Translations under genes and position numbers: made by a program
Notes under the pieces: model-generated
Told to the model about the DNA's origin: nothing
Databases searched by the model: none
The model's input: only the letters and a program-made list of their open reading frames with translations
Shown here: piece after piece, positions 2,503 through 57,338 of the stretch
Layout of the letters: every line of letters starts with the position of its first letter
Numbering within the stretch: position 1 is the first letter of the stretch
Origin: Escherichia coli
GTDB lineage: Bacteria; Pseudomonadota; Gammaproteobacteria; Enterobacterales; Enterobacteriaceae
Reading direction: 5' to 3' (one strand)
NCBI RefSeq assembly: GCF_003334405.1
Contig: NZ_QOWM01000008.1
DNA length: 64,000 nt

Positions 2503-2596
2503 GATGAAATTCGCCACTTGTTAGTGTAATTCGCTAACTCATCCTGGCATGTTGCTGTTGATTCTTCAATCAGATCTTTATAAATCAAAAAGATAA

Positions 2597-3337
<741 letters not shown>

Positions 3338-3390
3338 TAACATCCAGGCGGCGTCCGAACGCGCCGCCGCTCATCGTCTAAGGAGTACTT

Positions 3391-3615
3391 ATGAGCGCGC
3401 TATTTCTGGCTATTCCGTTAACCATTTTTGTGCTGTTTGTTTTACCGATCTGGTTATGGCTGCATTACAGCAATCGTTCTGGTCGCAGTGAATTGTCGCA
3501 AAGTGAGCAGCAGCGATTAGCGCAACTGGCTGATGAAGCAAAACGGATGCGCGAACGTATTCAGGCGCTGGAATCTATTCTTGATGCAGAACATCCGAAC
3601 TGGAGGGATCGCTAA
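3391..3615 (+). CDS. pspB: phage shock protein B
   Basis: 74-aa single-TM protein; operon position. Confidence 0.9.
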   Translation: MSALFLAIPLTIFVLFVLPIWLWLHYSNRSGRSELSQSEQQRLAQLADEAKRMRERIQALESILDAEHPNWRDR

Positions 3616-3974
3616 TGGCGGGCATTAATCTCAATAAAAAATTATGGCGTATTCCACAGCAGGGCATGGTCCGCGGCGTCTGCGCCGGGATTGCCAACTA
3701 TTTTGATGTACCGGTAAAACTGGTGCGTATCCTGGTGGTGCTGTCGATTTTCTTCGGTCTGGCGCTGTTTACCCTGGTTGCTTACATCATTTTGTCATTT
3801 GCGCTTGATCCAATGCCGGACAACATGGCCTTTGGTGAGCAGCTACCTTCCAGCAGCGAATTGCTGGATGAAGTCGACCGTGAACTGGCGGCAAGTGAAA
3901 CGCGTTTACGCGAGATGGAACGTTATGTCACTTCCGATACTTTCACGTTACGTAGCCGTTTCCGTCAACTGTGA
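3615..3974 (+). CDS. pspC: phage shock protein C
   Basis: 119-aa ORF overlapping pspB stop (ATGG/TAATGG coupling). Confidence 0.9.
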
Positions 3975-4278: not shown

Positions 4279-4593
4279 ATGTTTAAAAAAGGCTTACTTG
4301 CTCTGGCACTGGTGTTTTCACTGCCCGTTTTCGCCGCTGAACACTGGATCGATGTTCGTGTTCCAGAGCAGTATCAGCAAGAGCACGTTCAGGGGGCCAT
4401 CAATATTCCCCTGAAGGAAGTGAAAGAGCGCATTGCCACCGCCGTTCCGGATAAAAACGACACCGTGAAAGTGTATTGCAATGCCGGACGCCAGTCAGGG
4501 CAAGCAAAAGAGATCCTTAGCGAGATGGGATATACCCACGTTGAGAACGCCGGTGGCCTGAAAGACATCGCAATGCCGAAGGTCAAAGGTTAA
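4279..4593 (+). CDS. pspE: thiosulfate sulfurtransferase (periplasmic rhodanese)
   Basis: 104-aa ORF with signal peptide and rhodanese active-site CNAGRQS. Confidence 0.9.
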   Translation: MFKKGLLALALVFSLPVFAAEHWIDVRVPEQYQQEHVQGAINIPLKEVKERIATAVPDKNDTVKVYCNAGRQSGQAKEILSEMGYTHVENAGGLKDIAMPKVKG

Positions 4594-4608
4594 AAGAATT
4601 CACCATGA

Positions 4609-4634
4609 GCGGCGCTTATGCGCCGTTTTTTTTT
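4609..4634 (+). terminator. rho-independent terminator after pspE
   Basis: GC stem gcggcgc-ttat-gcgccg followed by T9 run. Confidence 0.65.
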
Positions 4635-4805
4635 CTGTCACACCTTATTTACATCCCCATAGATTATTTGCGTCAGCTCACAAATACGCTTTTTCCCTGG
4701 TAAAAAATGATTTCCTGCGTGACTAAAACCCTTGTGCTCAATTGACAGTTTATTTTCTGCGGAGTAGTCTCTCGTTTCATGGGACCGCTACCACGGAAAG
4801 GCAAC

Positions 4806-6485
4806 ATGAAACAGAAAATTACGGATTACCTGGACGAAATCTACGGTGGAACATTTACCGCAACTCATTTACAGAAACTTGTAACGCGTCTTGAGAGTGC
4901 GAAACGATTAATTACACAGCGACGTAAAAAACACTGGGATGAAAGTGATGTCGTGTTAATTACCTATGCCGATCAATTTCACAGCAATGATTTAAAACCA
5001 TTACCCACATTTAATCAGTTTTACCATCAATGGCTGCAAAGCATTTTTTCACATGTTCATTTGTTGCCGTTTTATCCATGGTCATCTGATGATGGCTTTT
5101 CGGTAATTGATTATCATCAGGTCGCCAGTGAAGCGGGGGAGTGGCAGGATATTCAGCAACTCGGTGAATGCAGTCATTTAATGTTTGATTTTGTCTGCAA
5201 CCATATGTCGGCAAAAAGTGAATGGTTTAAAAACTATTTACAACAGCATCCAGGTTTTGAAGATTTTTTTATTGCCGTTGACCCGCAAACCGATCTCAGC
5301 GCCGTCACTCGCCCGCGTGCGTTACCGTTATTAACGCCATTCCAGATGCGCGATCATTCAACGCGCCATTTATGGACCACCTTTAGTGACGATCAAATTG
5401 ACCTGAATTACCGTAGCCCTGAAGTGTTGCTGGCGATGGTGGATGTTTTACTCTGTTACCTTGCGAAAGGTGCTGAGTATGTCCGCCTGGATGCCGTTGG
5501 CTTTATGTGGAAAGAGCCGGGAACAAGCTGCATCCATCTGGAAAAAACACATCTGATTATCAAACTGTTACGGTCGATTATTGATAACGTTGCGCCAGGT
5601 ACAGTGATCATTACCGAGACCAATGTTCCGCATAAAGACAACATTGCTTACTTTGGCGCAGGCGATGACGAAGCACATATGGTGTACCAGTTCTCGCTGC
5701 CGCCACTGGTGCTGCATGCGGTGCAAAAACAGAACGTTGAGGCGCTTTGTGCGTGGGCGCAAAACCTGACACTACCTTCCAGCAACACCACCTGGTTTAA
5801 CTTCCTCGCCTCTCACGATGGCATCGGGCTAAACCCGCTACGGGGCTTGTTGCCTGAAAGCGAAATATTAGAGCTGGTCGAGGCGTTACAGCAGGAAGGT
5901 GCATTAGTAAACTGGAAAAATAATCCCGACGGTACACGCAGTCCGTATGAAATAAATGTGACCTATATGGATGCGTTAAGCCGCCGTGAGAGTAGCGATG
6001 AAGAACGTTGCGCCAGGTTTATCCTTGCCCATGCGATTTTGTTAAGTTTCCCCGGTGTGCCAGCGATATATATTCAAAGTATTCTTGGCTCGCGTAATGA
6101 TTACGCAGGTGTCGAAAAAATCGGATATAACCGTGCGATTAACCGTAAAAAATATCACAGTAAAGAGATAACCCGAGAACTGAACGATGAAGCTACATTA
6201 AGGCATGCGGTATATCATGAGTTGTCGCGTTTAATTACACTTCGTCGCAGCCATAACGAGTTTCATCCGGATAATAATTTTACCATTGATACGATTAATT
6301 CATCCGTAATGCGTATTCAAAGAAGTAACGCTGATGGTAATTGTCTGACTGGATTGTTTAATGTCAGTAAAAATATTCAGCATGTAAATATTACTAATCT
6401 GCATGGTCGGGATCTGATTAGTGAAGTTGATATATTGGGTAATGAAATAACGCTGCGCCCCTGGCAGGTTATGTGGATTAAATAA
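4806..6485 (+). CDS. ycjM: GH13 sucrose-phosphorylase-like enzyme (glucosylglycerate phosphorylase)
   Basis: ORF 4779-6485; start taken at MKQKITDYLDEIYGG (559 aa); first gene of ycj sugar cluster. Confidence 0.85.
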   Translation: MKQKITDYLDEIYGGTFTATHLQKLVTRLESAKRLITQRRKKHWDESDVVLITYADQFHSNDLKPLPTFNQFYHQWLQSIFSHVHLLPFYPWSSDDGFSVIDYHQVASEAGEWQDIQQLGECSHLMFDFVCNHMSAKSEWFKNYLQQHPGFEDFFIAVDPQTDLSAVTRPRALPLLTPFQMRDHSTRHLWTTFSDDQIDLNYRSPEVLLAMVDVLLCYLAKGAEYVRLDAVGFMWKEPGTSCIHLEKTHLIIKLLRSIIDNVAPGTVIITETNVPHKDNIAYFGAGDDEAHMVYQFSLPPLVLHAVQKQNVEALCAWAQNLTLPSSNTTWFNFLASHDGIGLNPLRGLLPESEILELVEALQQEGALVNWKNNPDGTRSPYEINVTYMDALSRRESSDEERCARFILAHAILLSFPGVPAIYIQSILGSRNDYAGVEKIGYNRAINRKKYHSKEITRELNDEATLRHAVYHELSRLITLRRSHNEFHPDNNFTIDTINSSVMRIQRSNADGNCLTGLFNVSKNIQHVNITNLHGRDLISEVDILGNEITLRPWQVMWIK

Positions 6486-7811: not shown

Positions 7812-8693
7812 ATGAACAGGCTTTTTTCAGGTCGTTCCGATATGCCCTTTGCGCTGCTGCTTCTCGCGCCCAGCTTATTACTGCTGGGCGGTCTGGTGGC
7901 GTGGCCGATGGTGTCGAATATCGAAATCAGTTTTTTACGTCTGCCGCTCAATCCCAACATCGAGTCAACGTTTGTTGGGGTGAGCAACTATGTGCGTATC
8001 CTCTCCGATCCCGGCTTCTGGCATTCGCTGTGGATGACGGTCTGGTATACCGCGCTGGTGGTGGCGGGCAGCACCGTGCTCGGGCTGGCGGTGGCGATGT
8101 TTTTCAACCGCGAGTTCCGCCTGCGCAAAACCGCGCGTTCGCTGGTGATCCTCTCCTACGTAACGCCGTCCATTTCGCTGGTGTTCGCCTGGAAATACAT
8201 GTTCAACAACGGCTACGGCATTGTTAACTACCTCGGCGTCGATCTTCTGCATCTCTATGAGCAGGCACCGCTGTGGTTCGATAATCCGGGCAGTAGCTTT
8301 GTGCTGGTGGTGCTGTTCGCCATCTGGCGCTACTTCCCGTATGCCTTTATCTCGTTTCTGGCGATTTTGCAGACCATCGACAAATCGCTGTACGAAGCGG
8401 CAGAGATGGATGGCGCTAATGCCTGGCAACGGTTTCGTATCGTCACGCTGCCCGCAATTATGCCGGTCCTGGCGACGGTGGTGACACTGCGCACCATCTG
8501 GATGTTCTACATGTTCGCGGATGTTTATTTGCTGACGACCAAGGTCGATATTCTCGGTGTATATCTCTACAAAACCGCCTTTGCCTTTAATGATTTAGGA
8601 AAAGCGGCGGCGATCTCGGTGGTGCTCTTCATCATTATTTTCGCTGTCATTCTGCTGACCAGGAAACGGGTGAACCTCAATGGCAACAAATAA
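7812..8693 (+). CDS. ycjO: ABC transporter permease
   Basis: 293-aa polytopic membrane ORF. Confidence 0.85.
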   Translation: MNRLFSGRSDMPFALLLLAPSLLLLGGLVAWPMVSNIEISFLRLPLNPNIESTFVGVSNYVRILSDPGFWHSLWMTVWYTALVVAGSTVLGLAVAMFFNREFRLRKTARSLVILSYVTPSISLVFAWKYMFNNGYGIVNYLGVDLLHLYEQAPLWFDNPGSSFVLVVLFAIWRYFPYAFISFLAILQTIDKSLYEAAEMDGANAWQRFRIVTLPAIMPVLATVVTLRTIWMFYMFADVYLLTTKVDILGVYLYKTAFAFNDLGKAAAISVVLFIIIFAVILLTRKRVNLNGNK

Positions 8694-9522
8694 ACGCACA
8701 CTCAGTCGCATCGGTTTTTACTGCGAGCTGGCGCTGTTTCTCATCATCACGCTGTTTCCATTTTTTGTGATGCTGATGACCTCGTTCAAGGGCGCGAAAG
8801 AGGCGATCTCACTGCATCCTACGCTGCTGCCGCAGCAGTGGACGCTGGAGCATTACGTCGACATTTTTAACCCGATGATTTTCCCGTTTGTCGACTACTT
8901 CCGTAACAGTCTGGTGGTGTCTGTGGTTTCATCCGTGGTGGCGGTATTCCTCGGCATTCTTGGGGCTTACGCGCTTTCCCGCCTGCGCTTTAAAGGTCGG
9001 ATGACCATCAACGCCAGCTTTTACACGGTGTATATGTTCTCTGGCATTTTGCTGGTGGTGCCGCTTTTCAAAATCATCACCGCGCTTGGCATTTACGACA
9101 CTGAGATGGCGCTGATCATCACCATGGTGACGCAAACTCTGCCCACCGCCGTGTTTATGCTGAAAAGCTACTTCGACACCATCCCCGATGAGATCGAAGA
9201 AGCGGCGATGATGGATGGCCTCAACCGTCTGCAAATTATCTTCCGCATCACCGTGCCGTTGGCGATGTCCGGGCTGATATCCGTGTTCGTCTACTGCTTT
9301 ATGGTGGCGTGGAACGACTATCTGTTTGCGTCGATTTTCCTCTCCAGCGCCAGCAATTTCACCTTACCGGTGGGCCTGAACGCGCTGTTCAGTACGCCAG
9401 ATTACATCTGGGGACGGATGATGGCGGCCTCACTGGTGACCGCATTGCCGGTGGTGATTATGTATGCGCTTTCGGAACGTTTTATTAAGAGTGGTTTGAC
9501 CGCCGGTGGCGTGAAGGGCTAA
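8680..9522 (+). CDS. ycjP: ABC transporter permease
   Basis: 280-aa polytopic membrane ORF overlapping ycjO end. Confidence 0.85.
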   Translation: MATNKRTLSRIGFYCELALFLIITLFPFFVMLMTSFKGAKEAISLHPTLLPQQWTLEHYVDIFNPMIFPFVDYFRNSLVVSVVSSVVAVFLGILGAYALSRLRFKGRMTINASFYTVYMFSGILLVVPLFKIITALGIYDTEMALIITMVTQTLPTAVFMLKSYFDTIPDEIEEAAMMDGLNRLQIIFRITVPLAMSGLISVFVYCFMVAWNDYLFASIFLSSASNFTLPVGLNALFSTPDYIWGRMMAASLVTALPVVIMYALSERFIKSGLTAGGVKG

Positions 9523-55281: not shown

Positions 55282-55455
55282 ACAAGATTAACTATCCGTG
55301 GGTAGTCGCTGTCAATGCTTTACTTGCTGAAGTTCGGGCGGGCGCATTTAACGATCTTTGCGCGGAACAACTTCGTACGCATGAATAATTAAGTTAGCAC
55401 TGTAAATAAAATTTAATCCTTAGCCGGAGGTATTTCTGCACCCTCATAAAATCAG

Positions 55456-55487
55456 GAAACCGCCCGAAAGGGCGGTGGTTTCATTGT
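55456..55487. terminator. hairpin terminator at 3' end of the two-gene AT-rich operon
   Basis: accgccc-gaaa-gggcggt stem-loop directly after stop codon of the 184-aa gene. Confidence 0.6.
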
Positions 55488-56042
55488 TTAACTATCTAAT
55501 ATTGTGCTAAATCTTTTTATAACCATCAAGAATGTTACTACGGTAAAAAAGAAGGATGAGTATGCTAAATAACTGATTATGTAAGCAGGGGTTGCGAAAT
55601 ACCATTTTTTTAATTCACTTGGGGTTTCTGGGAGAAAATATATTGCAACCGAAAAAATAACTAACGCTACAGATGTTAATATAGCATAAGAAACATTGTG
55701 ACATAATTGCTCATATACGGTTTTATTATTATTTAAAATTATTAGATTTGAACGTGGTTTGTTGTTTTCCTCAATGTCTGAAATTTTAAATACAGTTTTT
55801 TGTTTTTGATCGTAGATCATAATAACCGCGCTCATTAACAGTGCGGTAGTAATTGCTCCAAAGTTAACAAAAACAGATGCGATAGAGGTTTTCATTATCC
55901 CATAGGTAAAACATATGATTAATGATAATGTAAGAGGAATAATGAAGTGTATTGCGATGTCTTCGAGTAAAATATTTCCGCGTTGATCCGACATTGTTGT
56001 GTAATGTTTTTTTATTACACTCATTACGTTAATCTTGTTCAT
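55488..56042 (-). CDS. four-helix integral membrane protein (184 aa), candidate RexB-like effector
   Basis: Four hydrophobic segments (about 22 residues each); ATG overlaps upstream stop (ATGA); SD GGGGGA; very low GC. Confidence 0.6.
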   Translation of the reverse strand: MNKINVMSVIKKHYTTMSDQRGNILLEDIAIHFIIPLTLSLIICFTYGIMKTSIASVFVNFGAITTALLMSAVIMIYDQKQKTVFKISDIEENNKPRSNLIILNNNKTVYEQLCHNVSYAILTSVALVIFSVAIYFLPETPSELKKWYFATPAYIISYLAYSSFFFTVVTFLMVIKRFSTILDS

Positions 56043-56971
56043 ATTTTTAATCCCCCATTACCACTATGTAACTCACTTAGTATATCATTCGCAATGATTT
56101 TAACAGTGTCATGAAGTGCTTTAAGATCGGGGATTCCTGTAGATGCGTTTATGTTTAAGTCGTTATCATCTAATTCGGCAGAAATTCCTTTTCTTAAGAT
56201 GGTGTCGTAATTAAAAATGACTGTTCTATTGCCTAATTGTAAACTAACTTTTATTGCGTCACACTTATCTTCAATTATTTCTATTATATTTCCTAGTTTT
56301 TTGTCTTTTAAGTCTTTAAAACTACCAAATACGCCTTGATTTGCTTTTATTACCAAATCGGTTTTGATGTTTGTTTTGTTATTTCCGAATGAATCCGTGA
56401 TGTCCTTTGGTGCTTTGTAACCTTGGGCTTTTATTTGTTTTAATTCTGAATCAAGGATGTGTTGGGGGATTTTTTTGTGGCAAAGAGGATTGATTCTCGC
56501 TTCAAGTTTATATTTTGTTTTCAAGTGGTCTAGTAATGCATCAGAGAGTGTGCTGCGAGCAGAAATATTGTCATTAGCGTGAAATGCTATAATCCCTTCT
56601 TCTAAATTGTCTGGCAAAAATATTAAAATGTAACGCTGTTTGAGAGTTACATCGTTGATAGTTGTTGTATAACGTATTTTAGTAAGTTTATCGTCTTTTA
56701 TTTCACTGCTCTCACCATATTTCCCAACCTTTACATATCCATATATTACTTGGTTTTGAGCATCAAAGGTGAGTGATGTGTGTTGTTCAAGAGAAACCTT
56801 TGTTTTCGAGAGACCAAATTCAATAGGTGTGTTTTTATAGCTATTAAAATACTCAACAAATAATTCATATGCTGTTTTTTTATCGCTTAAACCTAGGTTG
56901 TTTAGTCTTTTGCTGGTTCGGCTGCCCTTGTGGGTTAACACACGGAATGAATAGAAGTTAACGCTGTGCAT
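56039..56971 (-). CDS. soluble 310-aa protein of unknown function, candidate RexA-like sensor
   Basis: ORF with AAGGA SD; Lys/Asn-rich, low GC; N-terminus MHSVNFYSFRVLTHKGSRTSKRLNNL resembles lambda RexA N-terminus as I recall it (unverified). Confidence 0.55.
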   Translation of the reverse strand: MHSVNFYSFRVLTHKGSRTSKRLNNLGLSDKKTAYELFVEYFNSYKNTPIEFGLSKTKVSLEQHTSLTFDAQNQVIYGYVKVGKYGESSEIKDDKLTKIRYTTTINDVTLKQRYILIFLPDNLEEGIIAFHANDNISARSTLSDALLDHLKTKYKLEARINPLCHKKIPQHILDSELKQIKAQGYKAPKDITDSFGNNKTNIKTDLVIKANQGVFGSFKDLKDKKLGNIIEIIEDKCDAIKVSLQLGNRTVIFNYDTILRKGISAELDDNDLNINASTGIPDLKALHDTVKIIANDILSELHSGNGGLKI

Positions 56972-57338
56972 GAAAAGTCCTTTTGAACATATAGGAATAT
57001 ATTAGAGCATGAATGTGTGCAATGCATAAAAGAAAAAGCTACCGCAAGGCGACTCCACCCACAGATAGCTCTTAATTGATTGTTTGTAAAAAATAATACA
57101 TTAATTATCTTCTGTGTAAAGAGGGAAACAGCCTTAGGGTAAGGGACACGAGTTGGGGGGATTGGTGAAATTTGCGTTGAGGATAAAACGATTTGCGGGA
57201 AAAGGATAGTTAAGTAGAATTGCTGCGGGTGCTTGAGGCTGTCTGCCTCGGGCATGAACACCAAAGGCAGATAGAGAAAAGCCCCAGTTAACATTACGCG
57301 TCCGGCAAGACGCTTAACATTAATCTGAGGCCACATCT

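Follow-up and report, generated by a model that had tools for sequence, protein, structure and literature searches.

RexAB of phage lambda was reportedly the first abortive-infection system to be observed; how Rex senses infection and how RexA gates RexB are reportedly questions of 70 years' standing. The lambda system (PF15969; PADLOC models PDLC02339 and PDLC02340; structure 8TWQ) is a linked operon of two co-oriented genes in a temperate phage, located directly 3′ of the CI repressor, with the second gene encoding RexB, a small inner-membrane protein with four transmembrane (TM) helices. Kiwa is also a membrane and soluble pair, consisting of a four-TM protein and a DNA-binding protein of ~310 aa. 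The Rex-like systems described so far number only five (PMC12894663), and the immunity location downstream of CI is not universal amongst accepted examples (PMC11077077). In the actinobacteriophage pairs Sbash gp30/gp31, CarolAnn gp44/gp43 and Butters gp30/gp31, a RexA-like cytoplasmic protein is combined with a membrane protein in varied orientations and at varied distances from the repressor, with the RexA homologues forming dimers and showing non-specific DNA binding (PMC11077077, PMC12894663). In the Butters pair, effector function resides in the RexA-like gp30, which the membrane protein gp31 sequesters (PMC12894663). RexABpp of Pseudomonas putida prophage P1 (PP_5643/PP_5644), in which RexApp matches RexA with an HHpred probability of 98 %, demonstrates experimentally that pairs this divergent are capable of anti-phage defence and of membrane damage (PMC12894663).

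A gene pair of the same general architecture, two co-oriented and linked genes with the membrane protein encoded second, is present in the window, i.e. the whole 64 000 nt stretch of Escherichia coli DNA analysed herein. The preliminary description of this DNA had reported two minus-strand ORFs coupled by an ATGA, each with a Shine–Dalgarno (SD) sequence, followed directly by a hairpin terminator and more AT-rich than their flanks, and all of these features are borne out. Gene A (56039–56971, minus strand) encodes a soluble protein of 310 aa and gene B (55488–56042, minus strand) a membrane protein of 184 aa, both as given in the ORF list, with the ATGA at 56039–56042 on the same strand containing both the A stop codon and the B start codon, an arrangement that points to translational coupling. 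An SD-like AAGGA (56978–56982, minus strand) lies 6 nt 5′ of the ATG of A, and is the same in a second E. coli allele of the pair; its counterpart for B, GGGGGA (56051–56056, minus strand), lies 8 nt 5′ of the ATG, within the 3′ end of A. Beginning 12 nt past the stop of B is a terminator-like hairpin with a T-rich tail (55448–55476, minus strand), the hairpin itself, ACCGCCC-TTTC-GGGCGGT (55459–55476), having a 7 bp stem with six GC pairs and a loop of 4 nt; a terminator scan calls it on both strands. Approximately 120 nt 5′ of A is a candidate sigma-70 promoter, TTTACA-16-TATTAT (57093–57120, minus strand), proposed on a consensus match only (10 of 12 positions). The diverged second allele has the same two hexamers, and a promoter scan found such sites to be no more numerous in this region than in shuffled sequences. 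The GC content is 0.31–0.35 over 55400–57000, compared with 0.48–0.54 in the flanks.

The DNA further upstream is not as had been supposed. Approximately 1 kb of non-coding, AT-rich sequence had been described 5′ of the pair; this region in fact harbours hok/sok, a type I toxin–antitoxin locus with a GC content of 0.44–0.49. The Rfam match to sok (57227–57402, 105 bits) lies only ~255 bp from the start of A, and the Hok ORF follows at 57397–57552 on the plus strand, as given in the ORF list. Due to the presence of this locus, the claim of recent acquisition next to 1 kb of non-coding DNA is inaccurate, and the notion of the upstream stretch as an AT-rich regulatory desert can be discarded.

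The element carrying the pair is a Rac-like lambdoid prophage inserted at ttcA, for which the annotated record of strain KV7 is 100 % identical. This record confirms the earlier placement of the pair between a replication remnant and the nin/Q region, as it lies between replication genes (DUF1627/DUF977) and nin/Q-like genes (DUF1367, DUF1364, DUF1133). Within the window, its neighbours are the DUF977 gene on one side and hok on the other, and it is antisense to the early-right genes. Unlike lambda rexAB, the pair resides outside the immunity region, on the opposite strand, in the interval from the replication genes to hok and nin. Carriage within E. coli is patchy and rare, with 37 of 5426 genomes harbouring the pair as one of two alleles (74 % identical), always in the same slot, compared with 3406 genomes that possess the neighbouring DUF977 gene. 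Between the two alleles, A displays a dN/dS of 0.05, indicative of strong purifying selection, and both proteins are conserved across the Enterobacterales and further afield. For these reasons A and B can be regarded as real genes, and chance ORFs or pseudogenes are ruled out.

Protein A is basic, with a pI of 8.97 (RexA, 8.61), and is longer than RexA by 31 residues. It is predicted to adopt a fold of the RexA/RdgC type, with a beta-sheet domain (residues 1–165), an inserted alpha/beta region (~165–265) and a C-terminal helix (283–301), and a structural search with the predicted model returned RexA as the best match. The model has a mean pLDDT of 70, with the inserted domain (165–260) falling below 50. 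The order of secondary-structure elements (approximately eight strands and two helices, then four strands and four to five helices, then the C-terminal helix) parallels that of RexA, with its split globular domain, its dimerisation insert and its helix alpha8. The model of A has the split globular domain typical of RexA, in which an antiparallel beta-sheet with flanking helices is closed by a C-terminal helix (residues 1–139 and 248–279 in RexA). The four strands and four to five helices modelled at the collinear 165–265, with pLDDT <50, may correspond to the domain through which RexA forms a homodimer, a four-stranded sheet with four helices. A greedy profile–profile alignment is full-length and collinear (A 3–301 with RexA 2–274), and positions the invariant INPL(C)H of A on the RexA hinge IEPLMRG, and DLVIK on DIVIKPK. 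The DNA-clamp fold of the A model is shared with RdgC (PF04381; 2OWL) and IML3/CHL4/CENP-N; RdgC differs from A in having no membrane partner.

At the level of sequence, no homology to RexA could be detected. Neither PF15969 (RexA) nor PF04381 (RdgC) matches any of 55 diverse members of the A family, Pfam giving no such hit even at E ≤ 10 for A or for these relatives, and A is unmatched at E ≤ 1 by the PADLOC RexA model PDLC02339, for which lambda RexA, as control, scores 9e-110. Comparison by hhalign of a wide A profile with a 30-sequence RexA profile yields a probability of 3 %, to be set against the 98 % reported from HHpred for RexApp, and none of the hhalign comparisons of A with RexA or of B with RexB (narrow, wide and profile-versus-profile; 0.2–3 %) is significant. 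Local HMM cross-searches scored below 10 bits, HMM searches of PDB sequences with A did not find 8TWQ, and nothing usable was returned for A or B from PADLOC, NCBIfam, Pfam or PDB sequences with either single-sequence or profile queries. Matches of A to sHSP and HPF amongst PDB sequences (E 0.003–0.01) cover 60–75 residues of the low-confidence domain, and were set aside as compositional. With regard to the N-terminal resemblance to RexA noted in the preliminary description, the letters given there for RexA are correct, but the similarity is not statistically significant by sequence.

Protein B, which exceeds RexB by 40 residues, has four TM helices (~29–47, 58–76, 119–137 and 155–175), hydropathy and an AF2 model (pLDDT 87) agreeing on the four hydrophobic helices originally proposed. 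The N-terminus, rich in K, a charged loop of 37 residues (77–113) and the KRF C-terminus are predicted to lie in the cytoplasm. TM2 contains an invariant motif, V59-NFGAITTALLM-70, and the residues conserved across the wider family are N60, G62, T66, Q79, N116, K176 and R177. Hydropathy places four TM segments in RexB as well; such a topology is common amongst proteins. The 37-residue loop and the invariant motif are features of B rather than of RexB, and comparisons between the two proteins revealed no relationship: B is unmatched at E ≤ 1 by the PADLOC RexB model PDLC02340 (control lambda RexB, 9e-61), hhalign gives probabilities of 0.3–0.6 %, and a Foldseek search of the B model against PDB and BFVD produced nothing at E < 0.1, with only generic helical bundles returned and RexB outside the top 50.

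Beyond E. coli, the A family comprises at least 591 cluster representatives (50 % identity) from Gamma- and Betaproteobacteria, each labelled hypothetical. In all 14 loci examined, which represent ~12 distinct settings, a homologue of B directly follows that of A, and in the homologous loci L003, L006–L009 and L014–L019 the two genes either overlap by 4–17 nt or are separated by a gap of ≤4 nt. A search for related loci using the B alignment found only four genome loci. The settings include lambdoid, Mu-like and Pf prophages and small plasmids; the pair also occurs on a plasmid-like contig that encodes ParA/ArdC, next to an integrase and within a toxin–antitoxin islet. On small mobilisable Col-type plasmids (5 kb) the pair is the main cargo, and one small plasmid that harbours it also has a RelE/ParE toxin–antitoxin system. 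A distant member in an Ignatzschineria prophage is arranged as a CI-like repressor gene followed by A and B, with Cro divergent, which is the cI-rexA-rexB layout of lambda. One prophage contains a true RdgC gene in addition to the pair. In the Pf phage PfAC16, the pair occupies the accessory slot that holds a Retron in PfAC01a, Gabija in PfAC02b and Kiwa in PfAC02a (PMC11878078). No model for the family exists in Pfam, NCBIfam or PADLOC; in PHROGs, A and B match just two families, both of unknown function (that of B being PHROG 15250), and neither the accessions nor the PHROG identifiers turned up in the literature covered or in the supplements to DefensePredictor.

The termini of RexBpp, as read from primers (MLIGQLANP... 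and ...GYKLQE), lack the motifs of the B family, and the start of RexApp obtained in the same way, MHRTATFV, is only a faint echo of the MHxVxxYxFR of the A family, with MHRT beginning no A-family member listed. None of the viral and metagenome contigs searched contained a 22-mer taken from a RexABpp primer. The actinobacteriophage pairs, compared here by description, differ from A/B in having actinobacterial hosts and demonstrated phenotypes.

Considered together, the pair most likely represents, with moderate confidence, a two-component abortive-infection or exclusion system of the RexAB type, carried by the Rac-like prophage as a cargo operon (moron) that would be expressed in the lysogen. 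The comparison with RexA/RexB made in the preliminary description holds in part: the predicted fold of A has RexA as its top match, B has four TM helices, the genes are coupled and the two proteins co-occur, whereas profile searches against RexA/RexB and defence families found no similarity, and the predicted structure of B matches neither RexB nor anything else in PDB or BFVD. Location within mobile elements and defence hotspots, and strict co-occurrence of A with B over wide divergence, also favour the Rex-type reading. More tentatively, A/B may define a large family, as yet without a name, of two-gene immunity modules resembling Rex, with at least 591 A clusters distributed over lambdoid, Mu-like and filamentous prophages and small plasmids, in which kinship to RexA exists at the level of fold only and the membrane effector is distinct, with an invariant helix of the form VNFGAI(T/F)TALL.

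Using lambda RexAB and RexABpp of P. putida as models, we infer that A dimerises, binds DNA and contacts B, that B has channel activity and that the pair confers an anti-phage phenotype. Cytoplasmic A, with its predicted RexA/RdgC-type fold, would probably dimerise via the central alpha/beta domain and clamp DNA, or nucleoprotein intermediates of phage replication or recombination, thereby sensing the infecting phage and activating B. The latter, a four-TM inner-membrane protein and probably an oligomer, may line a channel with the invariant polar face of TM2 (N60, T65/T66), with its charged loop and KRF tail providing a docking surface for A. Once active, B would dissipate membrane potential or integrity, such that the cell arrests and the infection is aborted.

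The roles could conceivably be reversed, in the manner of Kiwa or Butters, with B as a membrane sensor or anchor that holds A inactive or detects envelope perturbation, and A, as the effector, binding phage DNA as it enters or replicates and blocking replication or recombination with no killing of the cell. The predicted fold of A is that of the DNA-clamping proteins RexA, RdgC and IML3/CHL4, the Butters pair offers a precedent for a sequestered RexA-like effector, and the composition of Kiwa, a four-TM and a ~310-aa DNA-binding protein, is close to that of A/B. This alternative is nevertheless unlikely, as the invariant polar residues of TM2 fit a channel or effector better than a passive anchor. 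Kiwa itself was rejected as an identity for the pair, there being no match to KwaA/KwaB in PADLOC or to DUF4868 in Pfam, and the soluble gene coming first, the reverse of kwaA-kwaB.

That the pair does not serve in defence at all is distinctly unlikely. A would then be an RdgC/RexA-like DNA-binding protein working for the prophage, modulating RecA and recombination or biasing lysis versus lysogeny, with B as an accessory membrane partner; in keeping with this, the effect of RexA on the lambda switch does not require RexB, RdgC keeps RecA in check (PMC11077077), and the pair is adjacent to the replication module here and, in one prophage, immediately after CI. Such a role leaves the obligate coupling to a membrane protein unexplained, and sits poorly with carriage in settings that lack a lambdoid switch (5 kb Col plasmids, a filamentous Pf phage and a chromosomal toxin–antitoxin islet), with the prophage that already possesses RdgC, and with rarity amongst like prophages (37 of 5426 genomes, against 3406 with DUF977). 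Very unlikely is an addiction or toxin–antitoxin-like module that stabilises the mobile element, with B a membrane toxin checked by A, or an exclusion block, where B would stop DNA entry like SieB or Imm under regulation by A. Small hydrophobic proteins are frequent toxins, and the pair is both the principal cargo on small mobilisable plasmids and a neighbour of hok/sok here and of other toxin–antitoxin genes elsewhere; A, however, at 310 aa and with a predicted DNA-clamp fold, is far above the typical size of an antitoxin, a plasmid that carries the pair is already equipped with RelE/ParE, and placement in the Pf defence slot better suits immunity. The addiction alternative overlaps with the RexAB-type reading, as systems of this type behave like conditional toxins.

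Should the family reading be correct, RexAB-type defence would be a widespread class and not a curiosity of five examples. Due to the lack of a Pfam, NCBIfam or PADLOC model and the label of hypothetical, current tools find no defence cargo at this position in any prophage, Pf phage or small plasmid carrying the pair, an annotation gap that the family would close. On the same condition, the E. coli pair would give tractable access, as a second model, to the sensing of infection by Rex and the gating of its membrane partner; as the A/B family shares the same predicted sensor fold and is found in an E. coli host, the Rex questions could be testable by comparison. Phage panels and genetics are most easily carried out in E. 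coli, and B is highly conserved, with N60, T65/T66 and K176/R177 as its candidate functional residues.

The operon comprises two minus-strand ORFs, A (56039-56971, 310 aa) and B (55488-56042, 184 aa), encoding a soluble and a membrane protein, respectively. Both are present as set out in the preliminary description, whose account of their layout is borne out by the sequence: the stop codon of A and the start codon of B overlap within ATGA, as in translationally coupled genes, and Shine-Dalgarno-like motifs precede each ATG on the minus strand, AAGGA by 6 nt for A and GGGGGA by 8 nt for B. A terminator scan likewise returns the hairpin proposed after B, which is GC-rich, has a 7-bp stem (55459-55476) and is accompanied by a T-rich tail 12 nt past the B stop. 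Windowed GC content is 0.31-0.35 across the operon versus 0.48-0.54 in both flanks, in keeping with its reported AT-richness. Upstream of A, the supposed 1 kb of non-coding AT-rich DNA has a GC content of 0.44-0.49 and contains a complete hok/sok type I toxin-antitoxin locus of the hokD/relF type (57227-57640, plus strand). This locus lies directly upstream of A and divergent from it, and consists of a sok RNA (57227-57402; 105 bits, Rfam) and a 51-aa Hok ORF (57397-57552, plus strand). Within the approximately 255 bp separating A from sok, a promoter scan identifies a single promoter-like site by consensus match, TTTACA-16-TATTAT (57120-57093, minus strand).

A and B are real genes. Close relatives form 37 clusters for A and 44 for B, all from Enterobacterales. 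A 1.6-kb contig (QFQM01000595) of a "Flavobacterium psychrophilum" MAG encodes a B homologue 71% identical to that of E. coli; the contig is most likely enterobacterial and mis-binned, not from a member of the Bacteroidota. Two alleles of the pair exist in E. coli, with approximately 74% DNA identity and 74-78% protein identity, and A is under strong purifying selection (dN/dS of 0.05 between them). Over the 300 bp upstream of A, the alleles share approximately 92% identity (window 56950-57260 against 8461-8775 of the second allele locus, L020) versus approximately 74% across the ORFs, and this segment includes both promoter-like hexamers, the Shine-Dalgarno motif and the first codons. So sharp an identity boundary suggests either cassette replacement between conserved flanks or strong conservation of a regulatory region.

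E. coli KV7 has a sequence identical to the window; there the pair resides within a Rac-like prophage at ttcA, between replication-module genes (ydaV, DUF1627, DUF977) and hok, DUF1367, DUF1364 and DUF1133, and is annotated antisense to these neighbours; this matches the position previously suggested, between a replication remnant and the nin/Q region. The pair is present in 37 of the 5,426 complete genomes of E. coli, invariably on the chromosome and at one place within lambdoid prophages (DUF977 | B<-A | hokD). The DUF977 gene occurs in 3,406 of these genomes, and window 55400-58000, which covers hok with its flanking DNA, finds matches in 4,813 when used as a query. The slot after DUF977 (equivalent to window 55300-57000, approximately) is variable in related lambdoid and Rac-like prophages (L024-L027), harbouring a Dcm methyltransferase with an ATP-binding protein (ATPase), QueH, a BCCT transporter or small ORFs. 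Three of the strains with the identical cassette (L73, PK5074 and 64EVA) have an IS4-like element, IS421, between hok and DUF1367 (2547-3659 of the L73 locus, L028), with A/B left intact.

Beyond E. coli, a profile search of 1.84 billion proteins with A yields 591 representatives (50% clusters) at E ≤ 1e-3, nearly all of 300-330 aa, with named members from Halomonas/Vreelandella, Zymobacter, Ignatzschineria and Chromobacterium all annotated "hypothetical". At every locus examined, the next gene after A encodes a B homologue of 166-201 aa, the two overlapping slightly or separated by a short gap. These settings are mobile and accessory: a lambdoid prophage of Serratia, where the slot is that of E. 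coli but the pair runs in the direction of its neighbours; a plasmid-like Yersinia contig that also has ParA/ParG and ArdC; an integrase-adjacent site; Chromobacterium and Zymobacter prophages, as tail-gene morons; a Vreelandella islet that also holds PIN, HicB and ParE genes; and 5-kb mobilisable Col-type plasmids of Serratia, Klebsiella and Kluyvera. A Klebsiella variicola plasmid matches A in four pieces, and may hold a disrupted copy. In the Pseudomonas filamentous phage PfAC16 (L018), the homologues ORF1/ORF2 (412-1883; A 23% identical, A/B overlap 4 nt) occupy an accessory slot left of the repressor, which in sibling phages holds a Retron (PfAC01a) or Gabija (PfAC02b) (L022, L023); a published survey also lists Kiwa, ShosTA, Avs and IetAS there, and scores the PfAC16 genes as hypothetical (PMC11878078).

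Neither protein has a match in Pfam, NCBIfam, PADLOC or PDB sequence searches, 55 A-family members lack a Pfam match, and ten distant members have no PADLOC and no meaningful NCBIfam match. PHROGs assigns A and B to two families, both of unknown function, and neither the literature nor the defence databases and curated families searched (PADLOC and NCBIfam) name the pair. The PADLOC negative carries weight, as the RexA and RexB models there recover the lambda proteins strongly (9e-110 and 9e-61). Profile comparison of A or B with lambda RexA/RexB by hhalign, including a comparison of a wide A profile (135 sequences) with a RexA family profile of approximately 30 sequences, likewise gives probabilities of only 0.2-3%. 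The most permissive alignment nonetheless runs collinearly over the full length (A 3-301 with RexA 2-274), pairing the invariant L-E-A-R-I-N-P-L-C-H of A with the RexA hinge V-Q-I-E-P-L-M-R-G140, and D-L-V-I-K with D-I-V-I-K-P-K; it is suggestive, not significant.

Structural predictions add to this picture. The AF2 model of A (mean pLDDT 70) is confident at 1-165 and 265-300 and poor at 165-260, and displays a beta-rich domain, an inserted domain of four strands and four to five helices, and a C-terminal helix. This order would fit the split globular domain, dimerisation domain and alpha8 of RexA, although the inserted part is that modelled poorly. For B, hydropathy and AF2 (four long helices, pLDDT 87) agree on the four hydrophobic helices proposed earlier, and hydropathy gives RexB four TM segments too; a Foldseek search with the B model returns neither RexB nor any other specific match. 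In TM2, B has an invariant V-N-F-G-A-I-T-T-A-L-L-M and at its C-terminus a conserved K-R-F, whilst N60, G62, T66, Q79, N116, K176 and R177 are at least 90% conserved even after distant partners are added.

The claim of a RexA/RexB-type system stands in architecture and, for A, predicted fold, but not in sequence or in the fold of B. As A/B falls outside the sequence definitions of RexA, RexB, RdgC and Kiwa, yet shares the Rex-type architecture and, in A, the predicted fold, it is classed as a variant of the Rex type, in which B looks like a distinct effector lineage. The best-supported reading, favoured somewhat above even, is a RexAB-type abortive-infection module: A, perhaps as a dimer, would bind and sense DNA or nucleoprotein through its RexA fold, and B, gated by A, would compromise and depolarise the membrane, protecting against infection. 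Shown directly are the layout of the two genes, their inheritance as a pair, the selection on them, their placement at hotspots and the predicted fold. Lambda RexAB and RexABpp, a validated Rex-like pair of a P. putida prophage, offer functional precedents by analogy; over the N-terminus, the part compared, the primer-derived MHRTATFV of RexApp only faintly resembles the MHxVxxYxFR of the A family. The lambda order cI-rexA-rexB recurs in an Ignatzschineria indica prophage (L017, 9216-11450): there A/B directly follows a CI-like S24 repressor in the same orientation, and Cro is divergent. A genuine Pfam RdgC is encoded in the early region of this prophage as well (4519-5424), such that two RdgC-fold proteins coexist.

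The roles could instead be reversed, with B sensing and A acting as in Kiwa or phage Butters, which seems unlikely. Less probable again is a phage-intrinsic, RdgC/RexA-like regulatory role. On small Col-type plasmids (hits H54, H55 and the 5.7-kb p2 of Serratia proteamaculans, L019, 604-2057), A/B is the main cargo and sits beside a RelE/ParE toxin-antitoxin pair; that A/B itself serves addiction or entry exclusion is the least probable reading. The KV7 prophage (L001), to which the window corresponds, is rich in other conflict genes (sieB, ralR, kilR, ydaT and hok, plus tolA-like fragments close to the lysis genes), so A/B would be one exclusion or toxin module among several that it carries.
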